IMG/VR virus record: IMGVR_UViG_3300027917_000026
DNA: 64,000 nucleotides
Source of the DNA: an uncultured virus (IMG/VR IMGVR_UViG_3300027917_000026)
Taxonomy: Duplodnaviria > Heunggongvirae > Uroviricota > Caudoviricetes
Strand: one strand, 5' to 3'
A program made the position numbers and the translations under genes. The first letter of the stretch is position 1. Each line of letters opens with the position of its first letter. This document shows positions 311 through 61,870 of the stretch, piece by piece. The notes under the pieces are model-generated. The model was not told where the DNA came from. It saw nothing but the letters and a program-made list of their open reading frames with translations, and did no database searches.

Positions 311-482
311 AATTAACATTCGGCGGCTGATTAATTTGGATGAAAAAGATGGAGTAAAAAAATCAATTGACCGTATTACCAAACGGATTAGCTACTTGAA
401 ATCCAAGGCACACGCGGATCAGCCGGAATCAAGGCAAGTCAAATATCTACAATTCCATCTTAAAAAATTAAAGGCAATGTAA
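294..482 (+). CDS. hypothetical protein
   Basis: ORF 267..482; ATG at 294 after AAAGGA; stop overlaps dnaE start (TAATG). Confidence 0.55.
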   Translation: MKKNGKINIRRLINLDEKDGVKKSIDRITKRISYLKSKAHADQPESRQVKYLQFHLKKLKAM

Positions 483-19403: not shown

Positions 19404-19813
19404 GCCTTCTTATTATGCTTGAATCCTCTAATATCCAACAAGTGCCTTTTGAATGCCGAGAAATTGACTACCAATTCCGGCGCAATATCTGACAGCAATT
19501 CAACTTTGATTGAAGCAAAGTGAGCAACCGGTACATTCATTGATTTAATTTCAACATCTTTAAAAGAAGTCATTTTATCAATGAACCCACTTGACTTTTT
19601 GAAAAACCCATAGTAGTCAATTGCAAATATATCTTTATGCTCTAAGGTATAACCCACAAAATCGGCAAACTCACTTTTGAAAAGTCTTCCCTTTTTTGCG
19701 GGAACCTGACGCTTTTTAAAGATTTCATTATTGCCAATACTTGCTACAATGACTTTATTCTCAAAATCTTCCCTGTACTGAATCAGATCCAAATTAATTT
19801 GTTGTTTCATCAT
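19400..19813 (-). CDS. hypothetical protein, last gene of the - strand block
   Basis: 137 aa overlapping the end of the GT-A gene. Confidence 0.6.
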   Translation of the reverse strand: MMKQQINLDLIQYREDFENKVIVASIGNNEIFKKRQVPAKKGRLFKSEFADFVGYTLEHKDIFAIDYYGFFKKSSGFIDKMTSFKDVEIKSMNVPVAHFASIKVELLSDIAPELVVNFSAFKRHLLDIRGFKHNKKA

Positions 19814-20858
19814 AACCCCATTTCTTTAGCCATTCGAAGATTGTCATTTTAGATCTAGCTTTTATATGATCTCTTTGATCCTTACACAATCGCGGGATAT
19901 CTTGTAGTATATTTTGTTTCACATTAGGCCGACCACCCGACTTTGCTACATGTTCTTCAAACCATGTTTGCCCACCGTATAGATACGCGGCAATACAACG
20001 ATTGCGCAAAGTGTCGCCAGAATTGAATGCATACCCGCGTTTTTCTCCATGATGGTATAACGCCGTTTTAACAGGCATGATCCATTTCTTTTTATCCATG
20101 ACCCCTAAAGTGAAATTCATAAAATGTTCACCACCACTGTAGATCCCTAATTCTCTAGGCCACCCGCCGACCTCTTCATACAAATCCCTTGTCATCATCA
20201 TGCCACATGTAGACATACAAGGAACCTCATAAGGTTCGGCCTCTTGTCGATATGAAGCAAAACGATAATCCAATTGAACCTTATCAGGATTGCGGATAAA
20301 TCGCAAAGAGTAGATAAGCCTATGCCATTCAAGGATCTTGTAAGTCAACGGCAAATGCAATGTTCCATTCATTTCTTGATAATGATCTTTGTAGTAAAGG
20401 TATTGATCGAATATAGAATCCCTACCCGCAATGCAATGTGCATCGATAAAAAGAAGATATTTGCTGTCAGACGATTCAACACCTACCCGCTTTGCATTCC
20501 AATGTGAAAGCTTATCTTTGTAGTCAATTGTTCTAAGCCATTTATTTCCGGGCATACAATTCTTTAAAACCTGACCACCTTGATCTTCCGCGCCAATGCC
20601 CACTTCCATTGCATCAAACCAATTGCATATTGCCGTGTAGTCATCCTCAATTTTGAAACGGTTTTTCAATTGCCGAGCCAACCATCTTGATTGATCTCGA
20701 TCCTGACGAATAACTTCTTTGCAATAGTTGTTTACGGCAATTACCTCAAAATCAACTGGATCCCATCGATTCGATAGTTCTTCATTTATACTTTGCAACG
20801 TGAAGACAAGTTGCGGATACTCATTTACAAATGGCACTATGATTGATAATTCCGGCAT
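19794..20858 (-). CDS. GT-A fold glycosyltransferase (GT2/GT27-like, DxH motif)
   Basis: LSIIVPFVNE, LLFIDAHC, YEEVGGW...YSGGE. Confidence 0.88.
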   Translation of the reverse strand: MPELSIIVPFVNEYPQLVFTLQSINEELSNRWDPVDFEVIAVNNYCKEVIRQDRDQSRWLARQLKNRFKIEDDYTAICNWFDAMEVGIGAEDQGGQVLKNCMPGNKWLRTIDYKDKLSHWNAKRVGVESSDSKYLLFIDAHCIAGRDSIFDQYLYYKDHYQEMNGTLHLPLTYKILEWHRLIYSLRFIRNPDKVQLDYRFASYRQEAEPYEVPCMSTCGMMMTRDLYEEVGGWPRELGIYSGGEHFMNFTLGVMDKKKWIMPVKTALYHHGEKRGYAFNSGDTLRNRCIAAYLYGGQTWFEEHVAKSGGRPNVKQNILQDIPRLCKDQRDHIKARSKMTIFEWLKKWGYDETTN

Positions 20859-20860
20859 TA

Positions 20861-21529: not shown

Positions 21530-21531
21530 AA

Positions 21532-22302
21532 TTACTCCTTTCGCAACACAACACCGTGTTGACCGTGGTAATATAATATCTCATTTATTTTTCGAGTTGA
21601 AGCGGTTCTATCAATTACTTCAAAACCAATATCTTCACACATCAAAACCATTCTATTCATAGATATCTTCAAATTGATTTTTTGAATATTCGATTCCGAT
21701 TCAATGTAGGGAATGTGCTTTTCCTCATCCTCAATTGCTTTGCGCCATTCTATTTCTGTTTCATGTTTCTTTTTTCTGAATAGCCTAGAGAAATAAATGA
21801 CTGCAACACCACCTGTTTTCAACGTGCGATAACTTTCACGCAAGTAATTCTTTGCAATTTTAATCTTGCCTAGATGCATGAAAACAGTCCATGAAAAAAT
21901 GAAGTCAAAATAATTATCATCTGCCGGAATCGATTGACCATCGGGCGATTCCAGAAGTTTAAAATTAAAGCACCCCTGTTTTTTTAAGATATCACCAACT
22001 AAGTCATTGGCACCATGAATGTCTACACCAAATGACTTTTCAAAATGTTTTGCGGCGGCGGCAACTAGCAAACCCGGCCCATATCCAATTTCTAATGATC
22101 GTTTCCAACCTGACCGCAAATGACTTTCCGCAAACGGTAGGAATTGCGAACCGAAAACAGAATTCCTACTTGACCCTTGCTTATCCGCGCCGCCATGGGA
22201 TATAGAATAGAAGCGATATAGCGCACGTTGCGGATCATCTGAATTCCTTATTTTCAAAAGTGCTTCTTTATATCCATCAGGAGTGCATTTTAATTTTGTC
22301 AT
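21532..22302 (-). CDS. class I SAM-dependent methyltransferase
   Basis: LEIGYGPG, GVD, FDFIFSWTVFMHL, LKTGG. Confidence 0.88.
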   Translation of the reverse strand: MTKLKCTPDGYKEALLKIRNSDDPQRALYRFYSISHGGADKQGSSRNSVFGSQFLPFAESHLRSGWKRSLEIGYGPGLLVAAAAKHFEKSFGVDIHGANDLVGDILKKQGCFNFKLLESPDGQSIPADDNYFDFIFSWTVFMHLGKIKIAKNYLRESYRTLKTGGVAVIYFSRLFRKKKHETEIEWRKAIEDEEKHIPYIESESNIQKINLKISMNRMVLMCEDIGFEVIDRTASTRKINEILYYHGQHGVVLRKE

Positions 22303-22305
22303 TAA

Positions 22306-23535
22306 TTACTTCCTTTTTATAGGTTGTTTTCTTGCGACTATCTTTTGACCAAAAAACCAATCAATTTCATTTATCTCAATTGGATACATTTCTTCGGGTA
22401 ACATTGCAAGCATCATTTTCATGGAGATATTGTGCAAATGCCACTTCGGCATTGACTCTTTGCGCCATGGCTGATAATAAGGGCTTGGCCAGTAGAGATA
22501 CATTAAACCACCTATTTTCAAAACCCTTGACCATTCCTTTAATGCTATTTCGGGCGATTGCAAATGTTCAACACAATGACTACTAAAAATAAAGTCCACG
22601 GTGTCGGGATGCTCATTTATTTTGTAGGCATGTTCATCCTCACCCTCACCAATTGGTCTTGCCCCCGGAAGCGGATGATTACCCGCGCCGATATCCAAAT
22701 ATCTACCACTATCACGGTCCAGACTTTCGATCCAATCAAGTGCATCTTTTACTACAAATTGCACTTGATTATGTTGCTCTAATTCCTTTATCTTCCGCAA
22801 ACCCTGTACCATTCTGTGAACATCTGATGTTTGAATTTCTTTTAAGCATAGGTGTTTGATATCATTTTCGCAAGGTGATGGATTATAGCAATAACTACAC
22901 CACTTTTCATTGCACATATTGATTTGATCCTCATAACCATTCCATGACGGATGAGCAAAACCACCGTAGATAACAATTGCTTGTGTACCAACAGCCTTTG
23001 CAATGTGAGATATTCCGCCTTCCGCGCACACCACGGCATCACAACCAGAAATGAAGTAAACAAGATCTTTGATTGACGGTACTCTTGGTATTGCTACATA
23101 ACCCGGCCGTCTTGCCAATTCAGCAAATTTAGGCCAAACCTTTTTGGCATCCCAATGACCTTTATGTAGTAATTGCACACCCACAATTGGTGGTGTTTGC
23201 GGCGTGTGTTTTGGCAACTTAAAATGAATTTCGGGGTTCAGTATTGGCTTTTGTGTAGTCAATTGTGCATTTTCACAAATGATCTTCCAATCTGAAATTA
23301 TATGATGACAGGTGGGCCATTTGCGATGAATCGGATCGGGATACCCAAGAAAAATTGCCTCCTCTTTTCGATCCACGCCAATGTGATCAACATAAGGATT
23401 ATCTTCAAGTAATTCTGGAAAATTGGTATTGACTACAATTTCACTTTGTGGGTATGCCTCTTTTATACGCCGCAAAGTTGGGGTAACAAATAGAAGATCT
23501 CCAATTCCGTTAAAGCTTTTGATTTTGATAATCAT
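22306..23535 (-). CDS. GT9 (ADP-heptose heptosyltransferase-like) fused to C-terminal SAM methyltransferase
   Basis: GGAGG RBS before ATG 23535; GIGDLL, KKVWP, EGGISHIAKAVG, Cys cluster CSYC..C..C; then LDIGAG, SSHCVEHL, LKIGG. Confidence 0.85.
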   Translation of the reverse strand: MIIKIKSFNGIGDLLFVTPTLRRIKEAYPQSEIVVNTNFPELLEDNPYVDHIGVDRKEEAIFLGYPDPIHRKWPTCHHIISDWKIICENAQLTTQKPILNPEIHFKLPKHTPQTPPIVGVQLLHKGHWDAKKVWPKFAELARRPGYVAIPRVPSIKDLVYFISGCDAVVCAEGGISHIAKAVGTQAIVIYGGFAHPSWNGYEDQINMCNEKWCSYCYNPSPCENDIKHLCLKEIQTSDVHRMVQGLRKIKELEQHNQVQFVVKDALDWIESLDRDSGRYLDIGAGNHPLPGARPIGEGEDEHAYKINEHPDTVDFIFSSHCVEHLQSPEIALKEWSRVLKIGGLMYLYWPSPYYQPWRKESMPKWHLHNISMKMMLAMLPEEMYPIEINEIDWFFGQKIVARKQPIKRK

Positions 23536-23551
23536 CTTTACCTCCATTCTG

Positions 23552-24847
23552 TTATAATGCTTTAATACCTTTACCCCAAATTTTTGATTCCTGAAAAATT
23601 GGTTCATAATAATGTAGATAAAGGTTGTCCATATTATAGATCCGCCGCATATAAGTGCGTGTCAAACAACCTTCATTCTGAACAAATCGACCCAATACCA
23701 GATTTGCTACATTGTCAAAATATTCATCCCAACTCATATCAGGCTTAATATTCTTAGGATCAAAAATATTATGATGTGAACCAAAGTCTACATATAATCC
23801 AGAATTGCCATATATTTCAAGCATCATATAAAGACTTTTATTCAACACCATATAATTTCCGGCAAGTGCCGCCTCTGGGCCGACAAGCCCGAATGATTCT
23901 TCAACAGTGGGAAACATAAAAATGTTTGAACAAAGTAGTAATTCGCGCAACATTCTTTTTGTGATTCCGGTATTATATTTTTCATCCCATTCAGAAGTAA
24001 AAACAAATTCGTCAGGATCTAAACGTGCTTGTGCCGCAATTCTATGATAGTCAGGTAATTTTTGTTCGTGAGGCCGCCCATACCATTGATTTGCTACAAC
24101 CAAGAAAACACTGAATCCTTTACTTTTAATTGCACCAAAAAATTTGATTACTTTATCCACTTGTTTTGCATGTAGTCTATCCGTTGACGCGGGGTACACT
24201 TGAATAAAATCGGATTGCATCATTGCGGGGTAGTCATCTATAAATCGGCGGGTTTCTGGATGAAAATCATAAAAGCTTCGTAAATCCTTGATATGCGGTA
24301 TTATACGAACATCTTCAACGTGGCCTCTGAATTGTTCAGCAACCCTTGTGCGCTCGGTGTTGTTCGGGAAGATAAGTTTGTGATTCGGCCCATACCGTCT
24401 AATATCCCACCAATCATTCATTGTGCTAGGCACACTATGAATCCAATGTAGCCATCTGGCATTCGGCACATGTGGGCTTGCTTTGCGAATAGCTAATGAA
24501 TATGGAAGATTCCATCCAGTGAAAACCCAATCATGGGTAAAAATGTAGTCAATGTTGTGTTCATGAATTTCACCAATTAAAATTTCTTTTAATTTTTCTG
24601 CATATCGTTCATGCTTTTCGGATAACCTTTTCTCGGTGTGATAGTCATCCAAATGCACAAAAGGTATCTTCCGCAAAACCTCTGCCTGTAAGGGTTCATC
24701 ATATGCCTCATTATAGGTATCACATGTGTAGAAAAAAACTTTATTGTCATATCTTGACAACATTTCACATTGATCTTTTACAATACCTGATAAGGAATAG
24801 CCCGGATGGAAGTCTTGAAAGTTTGTGAGGATAGCAATATTAGCCAT
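23552..24847 (-). CDS. GT-B glycosyltransferase (GT4-like)
   Basis: EESFGLVGPEAALAG (Ex7E) motif; AAGGAG RBS. Confidence 0.85.
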   Translation of the reverse strand: MANIAILTNFQDFHPGYSLSGIVKDQCEMLSRYDNKVFFYTCDTYNEAYDEPLQAEVLRKIPFVHLDDYHTEKRLSEKHERYAEKLKEILIGEIHEHNIDYIFTHDWVFTGWNLPYSLAIRKASPHVPNARWLHWIHSVPSTMNDWWDIRRYGPNHKLIFPNNTERTRVAEQFRGHVEDVRIIPHIKDLRSFYDFHPETRRFIDDYPAMMQSDFIQVYPASTDRLHAKQVDKVIKFFGAIKSKGFSVFLVVANQWYGRPHEQKLPDYHRIAAQARLDPDEFVFTSEWDEKYNTGITKRMLRELLLCSNIFMFPTVEESFGLVGPEAALAGNYMVLNKSLYMMLEIYGNSGLYVDFGSHHNIFDPKNIKPDMSWDEYFDNVANLVLGRFVQNEGCLTRTYMRRIYNMDNLYLHYYEPIFQESKIWGKGIKAL

Positions 24848-24892: not shown

Positions 24893-25552
24893 TTATGATT
24901 TTGAGGTAGTCTTTATTTCGTATTTAAAGACTTTTTGTATTTCATCATGCTTGAATACTTTATTTATTGTATCATGTTTAAAAACCCTGTTTTGGTCTTG
25001 ATACTTGAAGATAATTTCTGGATCACTCGCAGGCAATACAGTGTTTTCAAGCCATAGGTAGTCAACATGAAAATGATGTGTCGGTGTGCCTGACCAATTA
25101 TGATAAATCCGAATTCTGAATTGTTGACTACTTACATAATTAGAATATTCATCACCATCGATGCTAAACGTGTAGTCATCCTCTGTTGCCCTTGACGGAA
25201 AATCACCACTATCCGCCGTGAAGTCATCCCATTGACTCAAAGTAAAATTCCACTTTTGTATTTTAACTAAGTGCGCGGGGTTGCCCTGATAATAGCCGTT
25301 TAGATGGATATCCCATGAAGTCATTACAACTGGCAATCCCTCAAAATAAAATTGAAAGTCAAAGCCGGGGTTGCCTGTTACTTCTTCAAAAACCATCGGC
25401 GTGCCATCGTCTGAACGTGTATCATTTAACGTTCCAGAATCAAGATTGCCAATGGTCAGGATATAACTACTTGCATAATACCACGGCACCGTGGTTGTGG
25501 TGGTGCTAGTGGTACTGGTGGTTGTAGTTGTTGTGGTCGTGGTAGTTGACAA
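24893..25552 (-). CDS. virion-type protein with N-terminal poly-Thr tract and C-terminal 9-aa repeats
   Basis: TTG start; 20-residue S/T run; beta-rich domain; (K/R)VFK(H/Y) x3; in frame with the upstream ORF across one TAA. Confidence 0.7.
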   Translation of the reverse strand: MSTTTTTTTTTTSTTSTTTTTVPWYYASSYILTIGNLDSGTLNDTRSDDGTPMVFEEVTGNPGFDFQFYFEGLPVVMTSWDIHLNGYYQGNPAHLVKIQKWNFTLSQWDDFTADSGDFPSRATEDDYTFSIDGDEYSNYVSSQQFRIRIYHNWSGTPTHHFHVDYLWLENTVLPASDPEIIFKYQDQNRVFKHDTINKVFKHDEIQKVFKYEIKTTSKS

Positions 25553-25555: not shown

Positions 25556-25879
25556 TTAGGTTTCCTTTATCTTCATTTTAACGTCAATTTCATATTTGTT
25601 CGCAAGGCTTGTGACGATATAAAATGTGATTTTGTAAGGTGTCAGTGTAGTGGTTCCGCCTTTCACCCTAACTTTGAGATAATGCAAAACATCATCCTTT
25701 GCTTTTGTAGCAATCTCAATAACATCACTTGTGACCTCAGTGGCAAGGTCTGAATAACTCCATGCCTTGATATCACTACTTGCAAGGTCAATTGTTTCGC
25801 CTGTATCCACAACATCTTCGATAGACCCAGCAATAACCCACTCTTCCCAATTTTGCTTGGTAAAACTTTCGACAGCCAT
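25556..25879 (-). CDS. small beta-sandwich virion-type protein
   Basis: 107 aa beta-rich; late-gene context. Confidence 0.65.
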   Translation of the reverse strand: MAVESFTKQNWEEWVIAGSIEDVVDTGETIDLASSDIKAWSYSDLATEVTSDVIEIATKAKDDVLHYLKVRVKGGTTTLTPYKITFYIVTSLANKYEIDVKMKIKET

Positions 25880-27226: not shown

Positions 27227-27430
27227 TTAAGTAGTTGTTGTGGTTGTAGTGGTTGTTGTGGTTGTCGGGCCAGATCCACCACCACCAACACGTTGCCATC
27301 CCGACTCTCCACCACGTATCAATGGCGGATGACCTTTTTTCTGATCGATACGAAGATTATCAGGACTAAAACTTTTCACCGCATCCCGACCAATTTTTTT
27401 CTTAATAATTTTTACAGGTGGTTTTGCCAT
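27227..27430 (-). CDS. small basic protein with GGGGSGP linker and C-terminal T12
   Basis: GGAGTAAAA RBS; ends GGGGSGPTTTTTTTTTTTT. Confidence 0.75.
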   Translation of the reverse strand: MAKPPVKIIKKKIGRDAVKSFSPDNLRIDQKKGHPPLIRGGESGWQRVGGGGSGPTTTTTTTTTTTT

Positions 27431-32626: not shown

Positions 32627-33077
32627 TCTTAAACATCTCCATTCTCTTTTTTACTTCTTGTTTAATCCATGGTAATTCAACACCTTTGGCTCGATGCACA
32701 ACAAAAGTTCCATTGCGGTGAATAACTACTGAAAAACCATCTTTTAAGAATGCTTTGATTTGTTTTCCTACAACGCTATTGATATCATAGTCTGGATCCA
32801 CAAGTCCGAACATTATTTTATTTTCGCCAATTCTTTCAAAAATTACATGGCAGTTATTCGGTCTTAATGATGGATTACATTTTTCCATTGCATTGTAGGC
32901 ACATTTATATTCTTTGCAACGTTGCGGTATTGCTAAGTTGTAAATCTTGCAACCATTCTTGGGATCACAATGCCTACACCACTTTCCGGCTGGGCTGTCC
33001 ATCCAAAATACATCTAACAATTTGCAACATAGCGTGCAGTCATCACATTTCACGTTGGCACCTATCAATAATTTCAC
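32613..33077 (-). CDS. CxxCxxCC (YkgJ/FliB-like) metal-binding protein
   Basis: CDDCTLCC ... CRHC ... CKIY ... C; start uncertain. Confidence 0.75.
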   Translation of the reverse strand: MKLLIGANVKCDDCTLCCKLLDVFWMDSPAGKWCRHCDPKNGCKIYNLAIPQRCKEYKCAYNAMEKCNPSLRPNNCHVIFERIGENKIMFGLVDPDYDINSVVGKQIKAFLKDGFSVVIHRNGTFVVHRAKGVELPWIKQEVKKRMEMFKNDRA

Positions 33078-33441
33078 TTGTAGATGTTCTGAAACGAAAG
33101 TTGATAAATTTGACTTCGGCTAAATCCTCACCCACAATGGGTTTGCCTTTCCAATCCGCACCTTTAACAATGTAGTCAGGCTTGACCATTTTTATTGTTT
33201 CATATAATTCGGGTTCGCCATCAAAAATAATTACTTCATCAATCAATCGAATTGACAACAAAATATATTGTCGTTGATCCTGATTCATAATAGGTCTGCC
33301 ATCACCCTTTAATTCGTGAACGGATCTATCAGAATTTAAACCGACAATCAGATAGTCACCAAAACCCCTTGCTTGCTCGAAGCAATCAATGTGACCTGGA
33401 TGTAGTAAATCAAAACAACCGTTTGTCCATACCTTAATCAT
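33043..33441 (-). CDS. hldC: D-glycero-beta-D-manno-heptose-1-phosphate adenylyltransferase (HldE domain II)
   Basis: WTNGCFDLLHPGH, VGLNSDRSVHELKG.GRP, VKGADW, STS. Confidence 0.92.
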   Translation of the reverse strand: MIKVWTNGCFDLLHPGHIDCFEQARGFGDYLIVGLNSDRSVHELKGDGRPIMNQDQRQYILLSIRLIDEVIIFDGEPELYETIKMVKPDYIVKGADWKGKPIVGEDLAEVKFINFRFRTSTSEIIDRCQREM

Positions 33442-34744
33442 TTATACCTCCTTTATGATAGTAAGTATCGGCGTCTGAATGGTGCGTGCTAAATTCAATG
33501 AATGTAGCAAACCCTGTTTCCGCCTTGAATCTGTGATTGATCCCGGGCCTAATCCGAAAGAAGTCACCCGCCCCTAGCCTATGAATTTTGTCATCCAAAA
33601 TATCAAGTAGTAAAACACCATTGGTCACATAAAAAGTTTCATCTTTTTTCTTATGACTATGATATTTGCCTTTACTACTCCACACACTATGTACTGTTAA
33701 CTCTTTGCCGCAGTACATATCATTATTTTCGATCCACTTTTCAAAACCCCAATCCTTCGACACATGCTTTGCCTTACTGATTTTAAATTTCTCATCTTGG
33801 AAGATATCATCCCAAGTGACCGTTGCGGTTCCTACTTTTGAAACCACCATTGATGATGCTTTATTGGCATATCTCAATGTAGTACTTGTCGAAAACTTTC
33901 CGCGTTCAACTGCACCAAAGACAAAACCAAGTACAGCAAAAAATGTGTCACCCGCACCTGTCAGATCATTTACTTCAACGAATTCAGATTCGATTTTCAA
34001 GGGTTTCTCATAATAAGTGCGACCTTTATCCATATATAATAAACCATCCTTGCCAAGAGTGACTACAAGCCGTTCCGTATCGGCACACTCATCCAGTATT
34101 TTCTTTGCGGCAAGTTGGTAGTCATTTTCAATGCCTGATGCCAAACCCGCTTCATAACGATTGCATTTTATCAATTCGACTTTTCCATATTTCATGTAGT
34201 CAACTTTATTATTTGGCGGATCAACTAAAATATTGGTATTGCCACATGATTGAATTTCATCAATTACTTCATCTGTAATAACGCCCTTGCCATAATCGCT
34301 TATCATAATAACATCAACTTCCGGCAAGATATGATTCAATCTTGATCTAAGCGTTGCGGTAATTCGTTTGTCTACAGGTGCCATAGATTCAGTATCTAAG
34401 CGGCATACCTGCTGACCATTCGCAATGATCCTATTTTTCAAGGTTGTCGGTCGTTTGTCATCGATGATTAACCCTGAAGTATTTATCCCATACTTATCAA
34501 GTAAATGAATTAATTCTTTTCCTTGGTTATCATTTCCTACAACACCGACAATGTAAACTTGCGCACCTAGCGCAATCAAATTACTACAAACATTACCCGC
34601 ACCACCGGGCATTTCGTTTGAATTGCCATCCATAGTAATTAATAGTGCAGATGCTTCTGGATTTACCCGATTGTTAGTGCCGTACAAGTAGGTATCCAGC
34701 ATTACATCACCGACAACTAAAATTTTTGGATTTTTGTTTTGCAT
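33434..34744 (-). CDS. hldA: heptose-7-phosphate kinase (HldE domain I, PfkB family) fused to C-terminal cupin
   Basis: VVGDVMLD, PGGAGNV, TTLKNR, SDYGKG, DLTGAGD; C-terminal KDWGFEKW...HSHKKKDETF...HRF cupin. Confidence 0.92.
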   Translation of the reverse strand: MQNKNPKILVVGDVMLDTYLYGTNNRVNPEASALLITMDGNSNEMPGGAGNVCSNLIALGAQVYIVGVVGNDNQGKELIHLLDKYGINTSGLIIDDKRPTTLKNRIIANGQQVCRLDTESMAPVDKRITATLRSRLNHILPEVDVIMISDYGKGVITDEVIDEIQSCGNTNILVDPPNNKVDYMKYGKVELIKCNRYEAGLASGIENDYQLAAKKILDECADTERLVVTLGKDGLLYMDKGRTYYEKPLKIESEFVEVNDLTGAGDTFFAVLGFVFGAVERGKFSTSTTLRYANKASSMVVSKVGTATVTWDDIFQDEKFKISKAKHVSKDWGFEKWIENNDMYCGKELTVHSVWSSKGKYHSHKKKDETFYVTNGVLLLDILDDKIHRLGAGDFFRIRPGINHRFKAETGFATFIEFSTHHSDADTYYHKGGIND

Positions 34745-40696: not shown

Positions 40697-40705
40697 TTAC
40701 TACCT

Positions 40706-42298
40706 TTAAGTTGTTGTCGTTGTTGTTGTAGTCGTTGTTGTTGTAGTCGTTGTGTAGTTATCCACATTTCTGATATAGAAATTCTTTGTGTATCCTGATA
40801 TCGTTGCTGTTCCAGATGCATCCCTACTTCCAACCGCAACTAAATATCTCAATGTCGTGGTGTGACAAATAGTTGTTAGGCTATCAACTAACGTTTCCCT
40901 ACATTCATCTGAAAAGATATCAAGATACAGATTGCTACCTATTCGATAGAAATTAAAATACCAATGACCTGTTGTTCCACTTCCCACATATGTATCTGTT
41001 ACCGCATTATAAGGATCAAAAAGTTCTATTGTTAAATTGCCAGCGTTGTTATATATTGAAACAGTAAAACCATTATTTGAATTATCTATATCCTGATAGG
41101 TTCCAGTGCTATTAGAGATAGCACAAACCATCACAAAACCATCGGTATCAGATGCAGTTATTTCAGCCTCAAATTTTACATGGAAATCACCAAAGTTACC
41201 CGCGCCATGATCTTCTGAAATCCAACTATTCGCAACACGTTGCATGGTATCAAATGTTGCCGTATGTAGATATCTAGTCAGATCACCCGCACTATCGGTT
41301 TCATCATATGTAGTCAAATCCTCATAAGGCATTGTGTACCATACATGCAGTTCAACCACTTCGGCGGCGGATGCATGTTCATATGCTGATAGATCTCTAT
41401 ATACCCAAGAACCAGAAGCATTGTCTCTAATTTGCGCAATTACTGCATCACCACATTGCCAATTGGCGGCATCAATAATAGTTTGCAAAATTGTTTTTAA
41501 TTGTGGGGTGTACCATTCTTCGCCATCATACCAATAACCTTGCGGTATCCAATTGACAGCAGAAGTAAGACTTGCACCTGTTATCTCAGTAGCATTTGCA
41601 TAGGCATCTGGATTCTTTGCTGTATCAAAGTAGATATTTACATTCGGGTTGCCTGTTTCTTTTGTGCTTTGTGCCGTGACTTTCATGTAGGCACTTTGAA
41701 TCGTTGCCCCCTCTGGAATAGTGACACTATCAAATCTAAAGAAGCCATATACTGCAAAAGATGAATATTTACCCATGTAGATATTAGCGGATGTATTACT
41801 ATAATTTGTGCCACCCGAATAGCAACGCCCATCATCTGTACCCGCCGCAATTAAGAATTGACCACCAATAGCCGATGTAGTTGTTGTGCTTGTTGTCGTT
41901 GTTGTGCTTGTTGTCGTTGTGGTGGTCGTACCTTCCATGTTATAGAAAATCAGCATTTGAGCCGCCGCCACGGTGGTTGTTGTAGTCGTTGACGTTGTGG
42001 TGGTTGTCGATGAGGATGTTGTACTAGTTGATGTTGTACTAGTTGATGTAGTACTAGTGGTTGTAGTGGTTGTGGTTACAGGCAAAATAGTATTATACGG
42101 CACATTAATAAATTTTTGTGTCGGCTGATCCCACACCAACATATCATTATTTGCCAGCGAAGTAATATTGGTATCAATCATGCCATCGACATAGAGCAAT
42201 ACATCGTTGAGCAAACGTGTATTTCTCTCCATGATCTCATTCCATGCTTGAGTGCCATACCCCAATTTTTGTAGTAATGTTGGTGAAAGTTTTGCCAC
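40706..42298 (-). CDS. tail fibre/adhesin with three poly-Thr/Ser tracts
   Basis: N-terminal fibre module; FRFDSVTIPEGATIQSAY beta-sandwich; T15 C-terminus. Confidence 0.78.
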   Translation of the reverse strand: MAKLSPTLLQKLGYGTQAWNEIMERNTRLLNDVLLYVDGMIDTNITSLANNDMLVWDQPTQKFINVPYNTILPVTTTTTTTSTTSTSTTSTSTTSSSTTTTTSTTTTTTVAAAQMLIFYNMEGTTTTTTTSTTTTTSTTTTSAIGGQFLIAAGTDDGRCYSGGTNYSNTSANIYMGKYSSFAVYGFFRFDSVTIPEGATIQSAYMKVTAQSTKETGNPNVNIYFDTAKNPDAYANATEITGASLTSAVNWIPQGYWYDGEEWYTPQLKTILQTIIDAANWQCGDAVIAQIRDNASGSWVYRDLSAYEHASAAEVVELHVWYTMPYEDLTTYDETDSAGDLTRYLHTATFDTMQRVANSWISEDHGAGNFGDFHVKFEAEITASDTDGFVMVCAISNSTGTYQDIDNSNNGFTVSIYNNAGNLTIELFDPYNAVTDTYVGSGTTGHWYFNFYRIGSNLYLDIFSDECRETLVDSLTTICHTTTLRYLVAVGSRDASGTATISGYTKNFYIRNVDNYTTTTTTTTTTTTTTT

Positions 42299-52842: not shown

Positions 52843-53366
52843 TTATCCTTTTCTTCTCAAGTATAATCGCCATTGCCGCTTATCCGCAAATCTTGCGGTT
52901 CTAACAGCAATAGCTGTTTGCTTCTGTTTGTCGAATTTGATTAATTCGTGTTCATTCAAAGCATCGATAAAGAACGAATACCCATAATCTAAGACGAAGA
53001 TATGTCCTGACTCAATGAGGGTACAAGCAGTTTTGAAAAGTCTTCGATGATCGCCCGACGCAAGTTGTGTATCACTTCCTCTAATCCCAACTGTCGGGCG
53101 GCTCCGAAAAAAACTTTATTTGTTTCTTGAAATTTATCCCAAATAACTTTTATATCACTTGGAGCCATATCGATCAAATCATCGATTGAAACATTTGTTA
53201 CTGCGGGTAGTATTGCCTCACCGAAATACTCCTTAAACGCATTAAGCGATAAGTTATCAGTTATCTTCTCATCTTGCATTAGATCAATGATTTGCCGTAT
53301 CGTCAATTCATAAACCTCAAACGACCGATCATAATCTTCGATTTTAAAGGAATGCGTCTTTCGCAT
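52843..53366 (-). CDS. tail assembly chaperone G (52989..53366) with -1 frameshift extension GT to 52843
   Basis: slippery T TTT TTC at 53112-53106; -1 frame open from there to TAA 52843-52845, just before the tape measure ATG. Confidence 0.8.
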
Positions 53367-53406
53367 ATTTTTCTCCCATTCACTTTTACTACCAACAAAA
53401 CCGCTA

Positions 53407-53967
53407 TTAAGTTGTAGTGGTTGTGGTGGTGGTCGTGGTTGTGGTTGCATAAGTTATGGTGATATACGGTGAATCCGCATGGTTCGCGGAGTCAGACAAA
53501 CCTTCACCCGCAAAACTCATAACCATGTATTCCTCACCGATCAATTGAAACGGGCCATTTGGAGATAAAGTCATTTTCCAAAAACGCCAAATCTGATTCG
53601 GCCCGATCGGATTATCGGAAATAAACTTCAACGCATATTCCTTATCAGTTTCGGTCAAGGCTTTTACTACATTGCTTGCCTTCGTTCCCATAAGGAATTT
53701 ATTAAGGTTAATTGCGGCGGGTTCATCCAAGTCAAAACGAACCGCATATTCCGTTTGGATGACAGGGTTTTTATCCTTTTGTCTAAACCCTGATCTGGAG
53801 CTATAATGCGGAAGACGTTCCAAAGTCGGCTCGACCTCAAGCGAAGTACAGTTGCCCATATCTACATAACCCGCCGGATCTGTTGGCGGAGTATTTCCTG
53901 ACCATTCGCCAATGTAGAGAATGCCTTTGCCGATTGCGTAATTTTGAACATTATGCGGAGTTGCCAT
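53407..53967 (-). CDS. major tail tube protein with C-terminal T12
   Basis: YAIGKGILY..DMGNC..LEVE; between tail terminator and chaperone; ends ATTTTTTTTTTTT. Confidence 0.85.
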   Translation of the reverse strand: MATPHNVQNYAIGKGILYIGEWSGNTPPTDPAGYVDMGNCTSLEVEPTLERLPHYSSRSGFRQKDKNPVIQTEYAVRFDLDEPAAINLNKFLMGTKASNVVKALTETDKEYALKFISDNPIGPNQIWRFWKMTLSPNGPFQLIGEEYMVMSFAGEGLSDSANHADSPYITITYATTTTTTTTTTTT

Positions 53968-55412: not shown

Positions 55413-55895
55413 TTACTTTTTTCTCCTTTTAATCTTGCGTGTTTTTGATTTAGAGGTTGTTGCCTTGGCTGTAGTCGTTTTCTTTTTACTATCCGCTTTT
55501 TTGGGTTTATCGGCGGCGGCGGGTTTTAAATCTTTGCCGCCTGATTCATTGCTACTTTTATCACTATCCACAAGCGAGTCACCAACAACAGTAAATCCAA
55601 CACTCTTTGACTCCGCTTGTCTTCCTTGCCTAATAGCCATTGCCGCTTCGGTCATACCTTGCGGCATTACCTTTACATCAGGCTGACTTATCGGCACTGG
55701 ATCTGGAATCAAAATCGGTGGATCAATTGCATCAAGTTTTACTTCTGGATAGCCGATATCCTTAAGCGTTTCCGCGACCTCATCATCTTCGGTTTCAAAT
55801 TGACCGTTAACGAATTCAGCCAAGGCGCGACCCTCTTTCGGGTTCCATACAATTGTAGGCAAAGTTGCCCTGTAAAATTTTCGTTTTTTACCCAT
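55413..55895 (-). CDS. hypothetical head-region protein with Lys-rich disordered tail
   Basis: AEFVNGQFETED..L...GY; AAGGAG RBS. Confidence 0.7.
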   Translation of the reverse strand: MGKKRKFYRATLPTIVWNPKEGRALAEFVNGQFETEDDEVAETLKDIGYPEVKLDAIDPPILIPDPVPISQPDVKVMPQGMTEAAMAIRQGRQAESKSVGFTVVGDSLVDSDKSSNESGGKDLKPAAADKPKKADSKKKTTTAKATTSKSKTRKIKRRKK

Positions 55896-55933: not shown

Positions 55934-56092
55934 TTAAGTGGTGGTGGTTGTAGTGGTGGTCGTGGTGCTGGTGGTCGTGGTCGTGGTCACAAAATCACCA
56001 ATTGACGCATTGACCCCTTCCGCCCACTTGCGCATATTGGGATGGACACCCGGATTCTCTTCCATCCACTTTTTGACTTTTTCGTAAGACAT
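55934..56092 (-). CDS. 52-aa protein with 17-residue C-terminal poly-Thr tail (not in ORF track); candidate capsid decoration peptide
   Basis: AGGAGG RBS; MSYEKVKKWMEENPGVHPNMRKWAEGVNASIGDFV-T6-S-T10; directly downstream of major capsid gene. Confidence 0.8.
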   Translation of the reverse strand: MSYEKVKKWMEENPGVHPNMRKWAEGVNASIGDFVTTTTTTSTTTTTTTTTT

Positions 56093-56169
56093 TTTACTAC
56101 CTCCTATTTTTTAGTTTGTTTAGGTTTACTACATTCTAATACCGCGCTAATACCGCGAAAATAGGATGC

Positions 56170-57132
56170 TTACGAAGTCGCAAGATTCGTGATGGTTCCG
56201 TGATATTCTTCCGGGCCATAGTCAAGACCGATCTGACCATAGATCTGGCCGGATTCACTCGCACCTGTTTTACTTAACTCCTCATAAAACAGGACACCCT
56301 TTTCCGGTACAGGTAGGAAAACAGGCGAACATACGGAAAGATCCGCAATCAGTAACGTTGCCGCAGGCACGTTCGGTGCCCAAACAACGCCGAGAATGGC
56401 GAAGTCGGTTTCGATCTGATTGATGTTATAACCACCAACATTCCGATCTTGCGGCGCATAGCCGTAGATATCCGACAGCTTTTGCTTCTGAAATGCGTTA
56501 ACAAAAATTACCGGATTCACAAATTCCGCACCGTTAGCCGCCATGGTGCGAAGCAATTGATCAACCAATGGCTTATCAAGTGTTGCGGTGGCGGCACCGA
56601 CCGTATTGGTGGTGCATGCAGTAATAACACCGCGAGTCTTTGCCGCGACAGCCGCACTTGTGGCTTGCTGATATGCACCGTTCAAAAAGGTGTAGTCAGT
56701 GTTAACCGCGATTTGACGCATATGCGCGGAGATCTGAAAATCCCTTTCGTTCTGAACCGGTTGCACACCTGTAATATCTACAAGGTTGGTTGTAGCATCC
56801 GCCGTGACTTGACCAACAACGGATTGCTTCGCATAAGACACCGTGACAGCCCGATGGAAAATTTGCACCGTGTTAACATCTTGATCACGAACATAAGTCC
56901 ACGGATTCGGGGCAGTCAATGATGCCGTTTCGGTGACGGCAGGTTGGGCGGCGGATTCCAACGCCCACGGTTGAGCAAGCGGAAATTGGAAATCTGAAAC
57001 GGTACGGATGGCACCACCCTGAAGACCACCGATCATATTCAAGAACGGCGTTTGATTCGCGCCGATCAAGTAAAGTTCACCAGTGTAGTTAGGACAATTC
57101 CAAGTTGTTGCGGTAGCATTTACGTTAGCCAT
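56170..57132 (-). CDS. major capsid protein (DUF5309/SU10-like)
   Basis: TPFL, NTVQIFHRAV.VS, ETDF, EELSKTG..E.GQI..G; follows scaffold. Confidence 0.88.
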   Translation of the reverse strand: MANVNATATTWNCPNYTGELYLIGANQTPFLNMIGGLQGGAIRTVSDFQFPLAQPWALESAAQPAVTETASLTAPNPWTYVRDQDVNTVQIFHRAVTVSYAKQSVVGQVTADATTNLVDITGVQPVQNERDFQISAHMRQIAVNTDYTFLNGAYQQATSAAVAAKTRGVITACTTNTVGAATATLDKPLVDQLLRTMAANGAEFVNPVIFVNAFQKQKLSDIYGYAPQDRNVGGYNINQIETDFAILGVVWAPNVPAATLLIADLSVCSPVFLPVPEKGVLFYEELSKTGASESGQIYGQIGLDYGPEEYHGTITNLATS

Positions 57133-57158: not shown

Positions 57159-58049
57159 CTATGCCGCGCTTCTACGTTTTTGCCTCAATGCAAAGATAGC
57201 ATTCTTAAGTCGAACACTGTTCTTTGCATCTTTTGCTTCGATTGCGGCGGCATATTCTTTTTCAAGTTTTTTAAGTTCATCATCTTCGTCAAAGCCGCCA
57301 TCACCGTCACCACCCCTAGATCCTGTACCGGGCGCACCTCCGCGAATCATTGCATCTTTGTCGGGATGTGCCTCAAAAATCAGGTTCATTGCTTCACGAA
57401 ATTCTGCAATGTCACCCGGATTCTCTTTTGAGTAAACAATATCTCCATTGGCATAATGACCAATTAAAGATAGTTCACCGGTCTTTTCATTTTCTTCGAT
57501 CTTAAACTGTTTACCAAAATGGTCAACAGCCATTGCGGGTAGTACATTGGTTTTTGGTTTTGTGCCACTGAAAAGCGGATGTGTAGCAAATTTGTTGTTG
57601 ACCATAAGATCACGAATTTGCGTATCCTTTTTTGACAGCCGCGTGCCGAATGACTCCTCTTTTTCCTTAAAGGCATCCGCCTGTTGAGTCAATTGTTTTT
57701 CATAGCTGTCTTTGATATCATCCTTTAACTTCTTCACTTTATCAGCGGCCAGCCAATCTTTTTCATTGAAATTAGCTACCTTCTCCAAAGCCTCATCAGC
57801 CTTAGTTTTCCACTCGCCAATATCATCAATGCCCTCGAAGATATCAAGATTTGTCCTCAATGACTTGTTTGATTCACGGTGCTTTTTATTTTCAAGACCG
57901 AGATCAATTATCTTCTGATACATGGCTGGTGGGTCAAGTGCTAATTCCTTCCCATCCGGGTCAAAGTAAATTGGCTTTCCATCATCACTAAAAACAGGTG
58001 ACTTTGACTCCTCATCAATTTTGATTTTCCACTCTTTTGGTTCTGGCAT
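57159..58049 (-). CDS. capsid scaffolding protein
   Basis: charged coiled coil, PGTGSRGG linker, C-terminal helix; precedes capsid gene. Confidence 0.8.
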   Translation of the reverse strand: MPEPKEWKIKIDEESKSPVFSDDGKPIYFDPDGKELALDPPAMYQKIIDLGLENKKHRESNKSLRTNLDIFEGIDDIGEWKTKADEALEKVANFNEKDWLAADKVKKLKDDIKDSYEKQLTQQADAFKEKEESFGTRLSKKDTQIRDLMVNNKFATHPLFSGTKPKTNVLPAMAVDHFGKQFKIEENEKTGELSLIGHYANGDIVYSKENPGDIAEFREAMNLIFEAHPDKDAMIRGGAPGTGSRGGDGDGGFDEDDELKKLEKEYAAAIEAKDAKNSVRLKNAIFALRQKRRSAA

Positions 58050-58818: not shown

Positions 58819-59099
58819 ATTTCACCATGTATTGCAATATGTTTTTCATATGCGGCTTTTACTCCATCAAAATTTTCTGGATCAATTAAAACCGCTTGAC
58901 GAAAGAAAAAAGTGTAGGGATTAAATTTCCCTATTATTTCCGCAAAGTCAGAATAGCTTTTATATTGATGCTTCGGCAATTCATGGACTATATTGATCTT
59001 GCCGCCTTTGACCACATCAAAGGATTGATATTGATCCTCATTTGTTACCCATCCAGAAATGTAGTCATCTGAAATATCTATAACGCAAATTAAATCCAT
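58815..59099 (-). CDS. small acidic protein, candidate immunity protein
   Basis: translationally coupled (TAATG) to the MuF stop. Confidence 0.6.
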   Translation of the reverse strand: MDLICVIDISDDYISGWVTNEDQYQSFDVVKGGKINIVHELPKHQYKSYSDFAEIIGKFNPYTFFFRQAVLIDPENFDGVKAAYEKHIAIHGEI

Positions 59100-61870
59100 T
59101 ATAAGAATTCCACTGGAATGTTGTACCGTTCCGCCAATTGGCGTATATGCGACAGACCACTTCCATAATCAGACTTGTGAACAATTATCTTTACTACATC
59201 ACCCCTTGCCAAATCGATGCCGCCATAGACTTGCGCCTCTACGTATGAATAAGCACCATCCGCCCATCCGCCCAATGTCTCCTGACCACTAAGCAAACGG
59301 CGAACATACCGCGACGCCTCATCTATACTTCTTGATCCACGTATCCATCCCGCAAGTCGGCGCAATATAGGTGCGCTATTTTCTAACGTTCCCAAACCAT
59401 CAGGGATATGTACTGCCGAAGAGTTACCACTAGTCAATGTCACATTTGCCTTGAATTTATCATGTAGTACAAATTCAATATCTCCATATTGACTAGCTGA
59501 TCCCGGATGAATCGGATCACGTAGAAATCCGTAAATCGGCCTTTCACCCGCAACAGCCGCAGGCAAATCCGCGCCATCACTGACTTTGCGGTAGGCAGGA
59601 TTTTTCTGCAACGTTCCATTTGATAATGCACGTTCCCAACGGTCACGACCAGAACCTTTGTATGGGCCGAGATAACCACTACTTGAACCAGCATTCTTTC
59701 CTAATTGAAATTGATTTTTAAACTTTCCATTTTTAAAAATATCTTTATAACTTGCCGCCGTTGCCGAATGCAATTGTCTACGTACAGAAATAACTGCATT
59801 GTCAGCAACCATTTGTGCAAGTTGCTGAACCTCTTCCGGTTCAATGCCCAAATATTCCGCAATGCGCCTTGTTTTTTCAGTAGTCAATTTTCCTGTATCA
59901 TCGGCAAATTTAATTGTTTGCTTCTGCCGAGTGTTTAGCGGCGGCCTTTCAGCCGCTTTTTTTAGCGTCACCTTTTTGACAGGCGGAAGTTTTACTACAG
60001 GTATCTCACCCTTAAATAAATTATCAAAAAAATCTTCGATCTCTTTTGGCAACATACCTTTTCGATAATGTTTGCTTGTGCGAATCGCCCATGCTTCCGC
60101 AAATGCCTCTTTGACATTGGTTGCCGAGTAGTTAGTTACTTTACTTTCCCACCATGACTTCCCATGTTTATTCCAAATATTATCCCACGCCTCATCAAAT
60201 TTGTTTAGTGGTGCATAACGTTTAAATAAAATGGAGTGAACATGATGACCGAATTCATGCCGAAAAGTAATTGACGGTAAATGCGCGGCATGTGTGGATG
60301 TTGACGAAGACCATGGTGTAGTCAATTTCATAATACTACGTTCAAGCACCATATTATCAGCCGCAATCGCCATCCGCGTTCCGCCATGGATTCCAAATGT
60401 TGACTTCCATCTTTCGGCAAGCTTGCCTAGATATTTATCCTTTACAAATTTGATATGTGTTATTGGATGACTACTTAGAGCATCCGCAATTAATGGACTT
60501 AAGCCGGTCATGTGTTCAACTGCATCAGCGACAGGTTTGACAATCATTTCAATAAAATTATCATAAGCATCTTCGCTGAAATCCACAATTCCATAGACCC
60601 CACGGTCAGCAAGCCTTTCATGCGGATCGACACCCGAAACCTTTGGAGGCTTTCCGCCTTTTACTACTTTCAATTCGGGTTTCTTTGGTTTCGGTGCCGC
60701 CTTTGGTTTTGGCTTTGCCTTCTTTTTAACAGCCGCGCCATAGGCTTTCAATTCATCTTTCAATTCCTTTAATTCGGCACGCAAGATTTTCCGCATTGCT
60801 ACGCCCTCTTTATATTCGGCATACAAGGCGGCACGTTCCTTTGTGAATTCTTTGCCCTTTTTGCCTTTCATGGCGTAGTATTTGGTTTTCAATTCATCGG
60901 TTCGCGCACTTGACTCCTTTAATTCCTTTTCCTTTGCGTCAACCCTTGCGGCAATTCGTTTTGCTTCATCGTCACCCGCATCCGCCGCCATTCTCGCAAC
61001 AATTTCTTCTTGAGAAATTTCTTCGCCTAATTCATCCTCAAGCCATTCTTTTCTGACAGGCCGCCAATGATGCCTACAATTATATCCGCCACGGTATTGA
61101 AAAGCTGGGCCACGTTTGCCTTGCCATGGCATCGAATCCCATGAGTCAATTGTTCTCTTCGTGTAAACCTTGCCAGCGCGGGTTATACAGAAGGGGCGTG
61201 ATGTTTGGATCACATCACCCACATATAAATAATGAGTGTAGTTAAGATCCTCAGCCTTTTTTAGAGTCACCGCATTATGGAAGTCATGCACCGCATCATG
61301 CGCAAAAGTGGTTGCATATAAACTCATAGGTCTTCCGCGTGCATCGGTGTGACCTGTCAGGACACCCGCAATCGTATTGCGCAATGTAGAAAACTTTTGA
61401 CCCCTGATAACATGGTCATACATTGCCGCCGCAATTGCGTCTCGCGCCTCTTCGCCAAAAGCCGCGAATTGCCTGTATGTCTGAAGCCTTAATTGATCCA
61501 TTATTGTTTTGTCGATTCCTGTAAATGCAATTGCATCACCAAAAGATCTAAAACGCCGTTTGACTACATCGGAAATGCTTGAAAAGTCACCCAGCATTTC
61601 ATCAACCGTCACATTATATGACTTCTCAAATTCCTTTACAAGCTGTGTGTGCATTGACTGCGCCATTTTGATATTTGCCTTTGTTGCGGCAAGTGTACCC
61701 CTAGGCGTTGTATCAAGTTTATTCAGCATATCAGTAATGTCTTCGCGCAATCCATTAATAGCACCTAGCAATCGCCGTTCATGGTTGTCGGCTAAATGAG
61801 ATAAGAAGTCATCGTCATCAAGTGACGATTGTAGCAATTCGGCGATGCCTATTTCACGAACCGTTGCCAA
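59099..61870 (-). CDS. MuF/minor head protein with zincin metallopeptidase and DUF3626/ART-like C-terminal domains
   Basis: follows portal; SRPFC...GGYNCRHHW; HEFGH...YSATNVKEAFAE; FKNQF...RPIYG...YGDI.FVL...YVEAQVYG. Confidence 0.82.
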   Translation of the reverse strand: MATVREIGIAELLQSSLDDDDFLSHLADNHERRLLGAINGLREDITDMLNKLDTTPRGTLAATKANIKMAQSMHTQLVKEFEKSYNVTVDEMLGDFSSISDVVKRRFRSFGDAIAFTGIDKTIMDQLRLQTYRQFAAFGEEARDAIAAAMYDHVIRGQKFSTLRNTIAGVLTGHTDARGRPMSLYATTFAHDAVHDFHNAVTLKKAEDLNYTHYLYVGDVIQTSRPFCITRAGKVYTKRTIDSWDSMPWQGKRGPAFQYRGGYNCRHHWRPVRKEWLEDELGEEISQEEIVARMAADAGDDEAKRIAARVDAKEKELKESSARTDELKTKYYAMKGKKGKEFTKERAALYAEYKEGVAMRKILRAELKELKDELKAYGAAVKKKAKPKPKAAPKPKKPELKVVKGGKPPKVSGVDPHERLADRGVYGIVDFSEDAYDNFIEMIVKPVADAVEHMTGLSPLIADALSSHPITHIKFVKDKYLGKLAERWKSTFGIHGGTRMAIAADNMVLERSIMKLTTPWSSSTSTHAAHLPSITFRHEFGHHVHSILFKRYAPLNKFDEAWDNIWNKHGKSWWESKVTNYSATNVKEAFAEAWAIRTSKHYRKGMLPKEIEDFFDNLFKGEIPVVKLPPVKKVTLKKAAERPPLNTRQKQTIKFADDTGKLTTEKTRRIAEYLGIEPEEVQQLAQMVADNAVISVRRQLHSATAASYKDIFKNGKFKNQFQLGKNAGSSSGYLGPYKGSGRDRWERALSNGTLQKNPAYRKVSDGADLPAAVAGERPIYGFLRDPIHPGSASQYGDIEFVLHDKFKANVTLTSGNSSAVHIPDGLGTLENSAPILRRLAGWIRGSRSIDEASRYVRRLLSGQETLGGWADGAYSYVEAQVYGGIDLARGDVVKIIVHKSDYGSGLSHIRQLAERYNIPVEFL

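Follow-up and report, generated by a model that had tools for sequence, protein, structure and literature searches.

The stretch analysed here, referred to as the window, comprises 64,000 nucleotides (nt) of the record IMGVR_UViG_3300027917_000026 from an uncultured virus (Caudoviricetes) in IMG/VR and is most of the genome of an uncultured siphophage. Its minus strand carries, directly downstream of the major capsid gene, an open reading frame (ORF) for a mini-protein of 52 amino acids (aa), which is made up of a short head and a tail of threonine (Thr) and serine (Ser) residues (T/S run or Thr tag). A previous reading of the window from its letters alone (the sequence-only reading) had described this ORF as preceded by AGGAGG, composed of a 35-aa head and a 17-residue T/S tail and located downstream of a capsid gene whose product ends in NLATS, and all of these elements were found as described. 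The locus comprises the following features:

55934..56092, minus strand: 52-aa ORF (stop codon included), capsid-gene-linked mini-protein with head and poly-Thr tail (ORF list, synteny, head profile)
55988..56092, minus strand: head, residues 1-35, with helix 3-12, an NPGVH turn and amphipathic helix 18-34; proposed docking module (AlphaFold2, conservation)
55937..55987, minus strand: tail, residues 36-52, 16 Thr and 1 Ser in mixed codons (sequence)
56100..56105, minus strand: Shine-Dalgarno (SD) sequence AGGAGG, 7 nt before the ATG of the 52-aa ORF (sequence)
56170..57132, minus strand: major capsid protein of the SU10 type, without T/S tail; proposed docking target (PF17236 SU10_MCP, E 1.7e-61; phrog_1328, major head protein)

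The ORF starts with ATG, follows the capsid gene after a gap of 77 nt and devotes 33% of its product to the T/S tail. This tail is encoded by ACC, ACG, ACT and ACA; given its use of four Thr codons, it is not a DNA microsatellite. A collagen-like Gly-X-Y repeat is not present in it (16 Thr, 1 Ser, no Gly). Translation of the window in six frames yielded 16 runs of at least 12 T/S residues, as opposed to none in each of 20 shuffles. Joining of the ORF to the capsid protein by readthrough or frameshift was considered and rejected, because the gene has an SD sequence and an ATG of its own and relatives differ in the length of the gap (27-166 nt). A scan for promoters and terminators around the gene gave counts taken to be no higher than those of shuffles (3 vs 3.1 and 3 vs 2.0). 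The whole ORF recurs unchanged in another study, on a contig of one of its runs, and the protein is recorded in a protein library on a contig of 96,882 bp.

In the window, replication genes occupy the plus strand from 0.5 to 18.7 kb (a fusion of DNA polymerase III alpha and uracil-DNA glycosylase, gp32-like, RecA-like, 5'-3' exonuclease). The late genes run on the minus strand from 63.4 down to 19.4 kb, beginning with a head part (portal, 923-aa head protein, scaffold at 57159-58049, SU10-type capsid protein, 52-aa ORF, 160-aa ORF, neck proteins), which is followed by tail tube, tape measure, RcGTA-like distal tail genes, lectin-domain fibres, holin and a sugar cassette.

Conservation of the mini-protein gene

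Relatives were collected from IMG/VR with the capsid protein as the query, which found 118, and the best 80 of these (49-100% identity) were kept. Loci were counted if at least 300 nt were available after the capsid gene (74/80), and a tagged ORF had to start within 700 nt. The synteny in related phages that the sequence-only reading proposed as a check was borne out: an ORF with a head and a T/S tail followed the capsid gene in 63 of the 74 loci, with heads of 34-48 residues and tails of 13-147 residues (median 24). Among the 11 misses, L014 carries a Ser-rich member that was dropped by the filter and is matched by the head profile at E 1.7e-11, six loci (L064, L067, L077-80) have a variant with an immunoglobulin (Ig)-type domain in the same position, and nothing similar was found after the capsid gene in L066, L071, L072 and L076. 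Of the 78 related capsid genes whose 3' end is complete, none encodes a T/S tail on the capsid protein itself. Tandem mini-protein paralogues, one short-tailed and one long-tailed, were present in 10/74 loci. The tandem loci are L007, L024, L031, L044, L047, L050, L058, L070, L073 and L074, where the tail of the first copy has 13-17 residues and that of the second 27-147.

The tails of the relatives use the Thr codons about evenly (ACC 324, ACG 298, ACA 282 and ACT 246 of 1,928 codons), which argues for selection on the amino acid rather than for a DNA repeat. The 60 distinct heads share the motif NPGxxPxxRx[YWF] at a mean column identity of 27%. Positions kept are R7 (0.82), N13-P14-G15, P18 (0.91), R21 (0.98) and an aromatic residue at 23, together with hydrophobic residues at 10, 20, 24, 27 and 31 and W or F at 34, just before the tail. 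An SD core is located upstream of 58 of the 60 distinct homologues. The ratio of non-synonymous to synonymous substitution rates (dN/dS) was tested on 59 equal-length head pairs with at least 55% identity. It ranged from 0.031 to 0.185 in the 22 pairs with unsaturated synonymous sites; in the other 37, synonymous sites were saturated and dN reached only 0.13-0.41. No equal-length head was close enough to that of the window for a pair test, and gapped comparisons with L004, L017 and L025 were used instead. These gave proportions of non-synonymous (pN) and synonymous (pS) differences of 0.26-0.30 and 0.66-0.99, respectively, with a dN/dS of about 0.2 for L004 and L017.

Among the ORFs of the window, the head profile matches the 52-aa ORF alone (E 1.4e-16). 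Run against 1.84 billion cluster representatives, it matched 67 clusters at E<=1e-3, of which 12 reach E<=1e-10; all are metagenomic and none is named. Nearly all of the matched proteins are 38-87 aa long and have the head at their N-terminus, from residue 1 on. Matches to two long proteins, P0045 (a WD40 protein) and P0055, were judged spurious and not accepted as family members. A set of 5.8 billion proteins contained 22 relatives, again all metagenomic, of which two are labelled 'hypothetical protein' and the rest are nameless; routine gene calling and annotation thus leave such genes without names. At E<=1, Pfam and PHROGs held no family for the 52-aa protein beyond chance-level matches to phrog_385 (E 0.04) and phrog_18763 (E 0.27). 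The ESM Atlas contains the sequence letter for letter and returned no usable match from it. On this comparative evidence, the 52-aa ORF is a real, selected and syntenic gene.

Many unrelated contigs of four sediment or estuary runs matched only the Thr-coding part of the gene (55937-55988), and stretches coding for Thr runs seem to be common in those communities.

The head and its exchangeable cargo

The helical look that the sequence-only reading had ascribed to the head is reproduced by AlphaFold2. Based on a 64-row alignment, it gives two helices (residues 3-12 and 18-34) joined by the five-residue turn NPGVH, with moderate confidence (mean predicted local distance difference test score, pLDDT, 67.6). 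The hydrophobic moment of helix 2 is 0.42 in the protein of the window and 0.35 on average in the family, compared with 0.25 in shuffles, and 50 of 64 family members lie above their own shuffle mean. A 35-residue hairpin with one hydrophobic face has a core too small to stand free, so this face probably packs on a partner or on other copies of the protein.

In the six more distant relatives with the Ig-type variant, the ORF directly after the capsid gene encodes 139-140 aa; the alignment of these variants (A2) takes in five of the six. A model of the variant (pLDDT 73.8) has an N-terminal helix (residues 12-25) followed by an Ig-like beta-sandwich (28-140). VIA-align placed it closest to generic Ig-like domains, with Z 10.9 (root-mean-square deviation 2.6, 96 aligned residues) to 5euv_A (a GH2 enzyme, C-terminal Ig-like domain) and Z 8.0-8.3 to domains of invasin and intimin; Foldseek returned nothing at E<=1e-3 from the PDB and BFVD. 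A head profile built without the Ig variants still matches the N-terminus of L064 (E 7.7e-4 among 530 ORFs). The same profile matches P0057 (E 1.5e-10), a protein of 257 aa in which the head is followed by about 220 residues. The ESM Atlas sets these residues beside viral Laminin_G_3 clusters (scores 0.97-0.98), which is a lead only, and the cargo of P0057 is probably a ConA-like domain. Judged from these matches, one small N-terminal module appears to carry alternative cargo, either a T/S run or a domain of Ig-like or lectin-like type.

The sequence-only reading had proposed that the mini-protein is a minimal adaptor that clips the Thr tag, and with it a glycan, onto the capsid surface at high copy. 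Of this proposal, the evidence supports a genuine, conserved and selected gene and a separable head that in relatives carries an Ig-like or probable ConA-like domain instead of the Thr run; the docking and the high copy number are putative.

Thr tags and sugar genes of the late block

All 10 ORFs of the window with at least 40 aa and a run of at least 8 T/S residues are located in the minus-strand late block, between 24.9 and 56.1 kb. They encode the mini-protein, the tail tube, a 426-aa structural protein, several fibre-like proteins, one of which has Thr runs as linkers among ConA-like, F5/8-type-C and SPRY domains, and some small products. The tail tube carries the same tag fused directly to its own end:

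53407..53967, minus strand: major tail (tube) protein with C-terminal T12 (phrog_807, E 1.2e-26)

Five complete relatives (75-95 kb) have 4-11 tagged ORFs each, always including the post-capsid mini-protein, and in four of them (G002, G004, G005 and G006) an ORF of the size of the tail tube (186-215 aa) ends in a T/S run. No T/S run of at least 8 residues was found in the ORFs of four relatives without a Thr-tagged mini-protein (G007-G010, 103 kb in all), of which G007 and G008 have the Ig variant and G009 and G010 have neither. The Thr tag is thus a lineage-wide mark of virion proteins that is restricted to late-gene products. With the capsid protein lacking a tail in 78 of 78 cases, the mini-protein is the only route by which the tag could reach the head.

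The match of the tail tube to phrog_807 ('major tail protein with Ig-like domain') is confined to the N-terminal part of that family, and the Thr run of the tube stands in the place that an Ig-like domain takes in other phages. For the ORF after the tail tube gene (52989-53450, minus strand), the listed start lies inside the codons of the Thr run of the tube, which read as Pro/Gln in the other frame; its true start is probably further downstream, and phrog_7608 matches its residues 37-121 only. Two large fibre-like proteins (38171-42298, minus strand) contain T/S linkers of 13-35 residues between ConA-like, F5/8-type-C and SPRY lectin-type domains, and both also end in Thr runs. A 107-aa ORF (25556-25879, minus strand) ends with TAA, and the same frame runs on through K-L and a T/S run of 20 residues into a 219-aa ORF (24893-25552). 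The two could be a single gene split by a stop codon, or a readthrough pair giving short and long Thr-linked forms. The 107-aa ORF has a homologue in G002, and behind it, in a different frame, lies a 44-aa ORF whose product begins with a Thr run.

The sequence-only reading had also named a second minimal adaptor:

27227..27430, minus strand: 67-aa ORF with basic head, GGGGSGP linker and T12, preceded by GAGGAG; orphan

This ORF reads as described and has a good SD sequence, but its role as an adaptor found no backing: it is not matched by the head profile of the mini-protein, gave no tblastn match in nine related phage records (the closest complete genome included) and matches only itself among the 5.8 billion proteins. 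By its appearance, it may be a real tagged protein.

The following genes for glycosyltransferases (GTs) and sugar supply are located in the late block:

23552..24847, minus strand: GT-B (GT4-like) glycosyltransferase, candidate enzyme for the Thr tags (phrog_2170, glycosyltransferase, E 4.3e-7; PF13439, E 5.6e-4, below cut-off)
19794..20858, minus strand: GT2 glycosyltransferase (PF00535, E 8.5e-7)
22306..23607, minus strand: GT9 heptosyltransferase-like domain fused to a methyltransferase, accessory (PF01075, E 5.7e-10; PF08241)
33043..34744, minus strand: split HldE-like pair, accessory sugar-nucleotide supply (TIGR02198, E 5.3e-77, and TIGR02199, E 7.5e-39, both below the equivalog cut-offs)
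33434-34744, minus strand: heptose-7-phosphate kinase (with cupin), one half of the HldE-like pair
33043-33441, minus strand: heptose-1-phosphate adenylyltransferase, the other half

GT2 and the GT9-like domain are above the Pfam cut-off, heptosyltransferase models match the latter below theirs (E 6.8e-8), and a comparison of the fusion protein with solved structures matched only a methyltransferase. A second methyltransferase and a sulfotransferase-like protein complete the sugar cassette (19794-24847 and 33043-34744, minus strand), whose predicted functions suggest a methylated or sulfated glycan containing heptose. Homologues of the GT-B gene, which is located at the end of the fibre gene block, are present in all five complete tagged relatives (E 7e-30 to 3.5e-189). 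For GT2, a PF00535 match was obtained in 5/5 of these genomes (above cut-off in 4/5) and a tblastn homologue in 4/5. The GT9-methyltransferase, the second methyltransferase and the sulfotransferase recur in G002 only, and the heptose genes were not found in any of the five. This pattern makes GT-B and GT2 the likely core of the system, with a variable periphery. A simple rule by which the presence of a tag equals that of a GT was discarded, given GT-like genes in the untagged relatives G007 and G009. The family PF23452 (HPAT) was not matched by any of 49 proteins of the window at E<=0.01, by any of 12 at E<=10, or in any of the five complete relatives; the control genomes gave no match either.

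Glycosylation of the Thr run would be consistent with its composition, with its co-occurrence with these enzymes and with a precedent in mycobacteriophages. As regards the idea of a glycan attached to a Thr tag, put forward in the sequence-only reading, two points are supported: the tag is lineage-wide on virion proteins, and it co-occurs with a conserved glycosyltransferase.

Proposed role, alternatives and neighbouring genes

We propose that the mini-protein is a very small modular head protein of the decoration type from a lineage of uncultured siphophages known from sediment and estuary metagenomes. Residues 1-35 would fold into a helix-turn-helix whose conserved face (P18, R21, the aromatic residue 23 and the hydrophobic positions 20, 24, 27, 31 and 34) docks on the outside of the SU10-type shell, and residues 36-52 would form an extended Thr run that points into the medium. 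The mini-protein would thereby provide the head with the tag that the tail tube and fibre proteins bear directly, as part of their own termini. In the infected cell, this tag would most likely be O-glycosylated by the GT-B and GT2 enzymes of the phage, with a heptose branch added in the present case. This would give the virion a mucin-like brush of glycans, with a role in shielding, dispersal or adhesion. Docking on the capsid, stoichiometry, glycosylation and the role of the brush are all inferred from the genes; the reading as a whole, in which a modular head-accessory protein docks on the capsid and its Thr run is most likely O-glycosylated into such a brush, is the one we favour, with moderate confidence. 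The tandem short- and long-tailed paralogues suggest that one head has brushes of two lengths or binds the mini-proteins at two positions.

Three known systems bear on this proposal. Hoc of phage T4 and pb10 of T5 are, according to excerpts of PMC7602432, accessory head proteins with a capsid-binding domain and one or more outward Ig-like domains; assembly does not require them, and their presumed role is in adhesion or dispersal (excerpts of PMC7602432 and PMC5292684). Exchangeable cargo on one head follows the same logic of an anchor with an outward cargo, and the Ig-carrying variants of the mini-protein family (L064, L067, L077-80) share the layout. In contrast to Hoc and pb10, to which no sequence relation was found (no Pfam or PHROG match), the mini-protein has an anchor of only about 35 residues in the form of a helical hairpin, and most members display a bare T/S run rather than a folded domain; nor do the structural matches of the Ig variant, all to generic Ig-like domains in VIA-align and none at E<=1e-3 in Foldseek (PDB, BFVD), point to homology. 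SPP1 gp12 is described in the same excerpts of PMC7602432 as a very small accessory head protein that is encoded beside the capsid gene, consists mostly of a low-complexity, collagen-like repeat and binds the centre of the hexamer. The mini-protein resembles it in size, low complexity and gene position and differs in its tail, which has no Gly-X-Y; for gp12, no report of glycosylation was found in this review, where the word stem 'glycos' does not occur. In mycobacteriophages, phage-encoded GTs place glycans on the C-termini of capsid and tail-tube subunits (excerpts of PMC12619734, citing Freeman 2023). The present phage is similar in that its tail tube ends in T12 and it encodes GT-B, GT2 and GT9-like enzymes, but its capsid protein has no extension (0/78) and a separate 52-aa protein carries the run; moreover, its tag is near-pure poly-Thr, hosts and lineage are unrelated, and its glycan is a predicted one. 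With respect to decoration proteins, two traits were found: a gene in the head module beside the capsid gene, and a modular anchor with an exchangeable outward part, the latter with weak homology of the Ig variant (E 7.7e-4). By its sequence, the mini-protein would thus work like a modular decoration protein and resembles the glycosylation of Ser/Thr-rich extensions, and it could not be placed in any of these groups by sequence or defining feature. No description of poly-Thr-tagged phage proteins was found in the literature searched.

Several observations weigh against the proposed role. On the side of the head, the model is only moderately confident (pLDDT 67.6), and conservation of the head is much lower than that of the capsid protein as the proposed target (mean column identity 27% and 81%, respectively). 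The homology of the Ig variants is weak: L064 matches at E 7.7e-4, and L067 and L077 fall below the threshold on their own and are tied to the head family only via 52-53% identity to L064. Cultured phages with a capsid protein of 35-39% identity have no such gene. On the side of the glycan, the assignment of GT-B rests on sub-threshold Pfam matches and a PHROG match, and no relative of it was found by sequence among solved structures. GTs are not exclusive to tagged phages, as the untagged relative G007 has a sub-threshold GT2-like match and the untagged relative G009 a GT1 match above cut-off. The heptose genes, with 0/5 relatives having them, cannot be the core of the system. GT-B was also missing from five of five fragment records (13-76% complete), one of which (G011) is itself a tagged fragment; since these records are fragments, its absence is weak evidence. 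Neutral with respect to docking is a complex prediction with two copies of the capsid protein and the head, which gave a score of 0.00 and a mark of 0.32 with controls that were not folded. No relative of the capsid protein profile was found by sequence among solved structures.

Part of this evidence would also fit a mini-protein on the virion surface whose Thr run stays unglycosylated, acting as a bare, disordered bristle (against aggregation, or against fouling on sediment particles) or as a weak polysaccharide adhesive, with the GTs modifying the host surface or DNA. GT genes occur in untagged relatives too, the accessory sugar genes differ from phage to phage, and the position can also be taken by a domain of Ig-like or lectin-like type, for which no sugar is needed. 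Nevertheless, one GT-B gene is kept at the end of the fibre gene block in 5/5 tagged complete genomes, and the mycobacteriophage precedent favours glycosylation. Hydroxyl acceptor tracts of mucin-type and serine-rich-repeat glycoproteins have a near-pure Thr/Ser composition, and the near-pure T/S tails, in mixed codons over 13-147 residues, resemble them. We therefore regard a bare bristle as unlikely.

The mini-protein might be structural and yet sit off the shell, docking on the portal, the 160-aa neighbour or a connector, or acting transiently in head assembly. Its gene lies between the capsid gene and the equally syntenic 160-aa gene, which is followed by the neck genes, and a fast-diverging head facing a nearly invariant capsid protein would fit a partner that diverges itself, such as the 160-aa neighbour with its variable C-terminal part. 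This is set against a position directly after the capsid gene that is kept in 63/74 loci, and against the head-plus-Ig-like layout, shared with Hoc and pb10 as decoration proteins that bind hexamers (excerpts of PMC7602432). Moreover, with tail tube and fibres carrying tags of their own and the capsid protein none, the head is the one large surface that lacks a tag of its own, which also counts against a location off the shell. We consider such a location rather improbable.

Small size and the lack of a known family would suit a product that is no virion component at all, such as a soluble acceptor or decoy peptide for GTs or a small regulatory or lysis-timing peptide of the late operon; with the same head joined elsewhere to Ig-like and lectin-like domains of the kind usual on virion surfaces, strict synteny with the capsid gene and the tag present on bona fide structural proteins, there is very little room for this explanation. 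The shortness of the ORF, its low-complexity last third and its absence from cultured relatives might suggest that it arose by chance in the spacer behind the capsid gene. As far as sequence evidence goes, this is already refuted: dN/dS is well under 1 and synonymous sites are saturated, key residues are invariant across the 60 distinct heads, an SD core precedes 58/60 homologues, and 67 clusters match at a database-wide E<=1e-3.

Returning to the capsid-docking reading, a bolder form of it may be put forward tentatively. The 35-residue hairpin could be a portable capsid-docking module, among the smallest known, with interchangeable cargo in the form of a glycosylated poly-Thr brush, an Ig-like domain or a lectin-like domain. 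Poly-Thr could then serve as a general address for a GT to sugar-coat the whole virion, with the head reached via the adaptor and tail tube and fibres directly, and tail length and tandem paralogues could tune the thickness of the coat. If this is true, environmental phages build a mucin-like glycan coat from two parts, a poly-Thr address and a transferase, and reach the capsid via a separate 4-kDa adaptor that leaves the capsid protein unchanged. Virion glycosylation, so far documented for mycobacteriophages, would extend to an unrelated sediment and estuary lineage, which would offer a testable case of the surface chemistry of phage heads evolving by cargo swaps on a fixed anchor. The head could also provide a very small natural display tag for SU10-type capsids.

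Further observations concern other genes of the window. The 160-aa ORF (55413-55895, minus strand), located 3' of the mini-protein gene and equally syntenic in relatives, has a conserved N-terminal part of about 55 residues (…FYRATLPTIVWNP…) and a variable, charged and probably disordered C-terminal part. It is without a known family and might associate with the head as a second such protein or act as a partner of the mini-protein. Encoded between portal and scaffold, the 923-aa late protein (59099-61870, minus strand) contains a C-terminal DUF3626 domain (E 5e-15) and shows a weak, sub-threshold metalloprotease-like match; it may be a minor head protein that carries cargo. In the replication block, the DNA polymerase III alpha subunit (482-3865, plus strand; PHP, NTPase and finger domains) is fused at its C-terminus to a domain of the uracil-DNA glycosylase superfamily.

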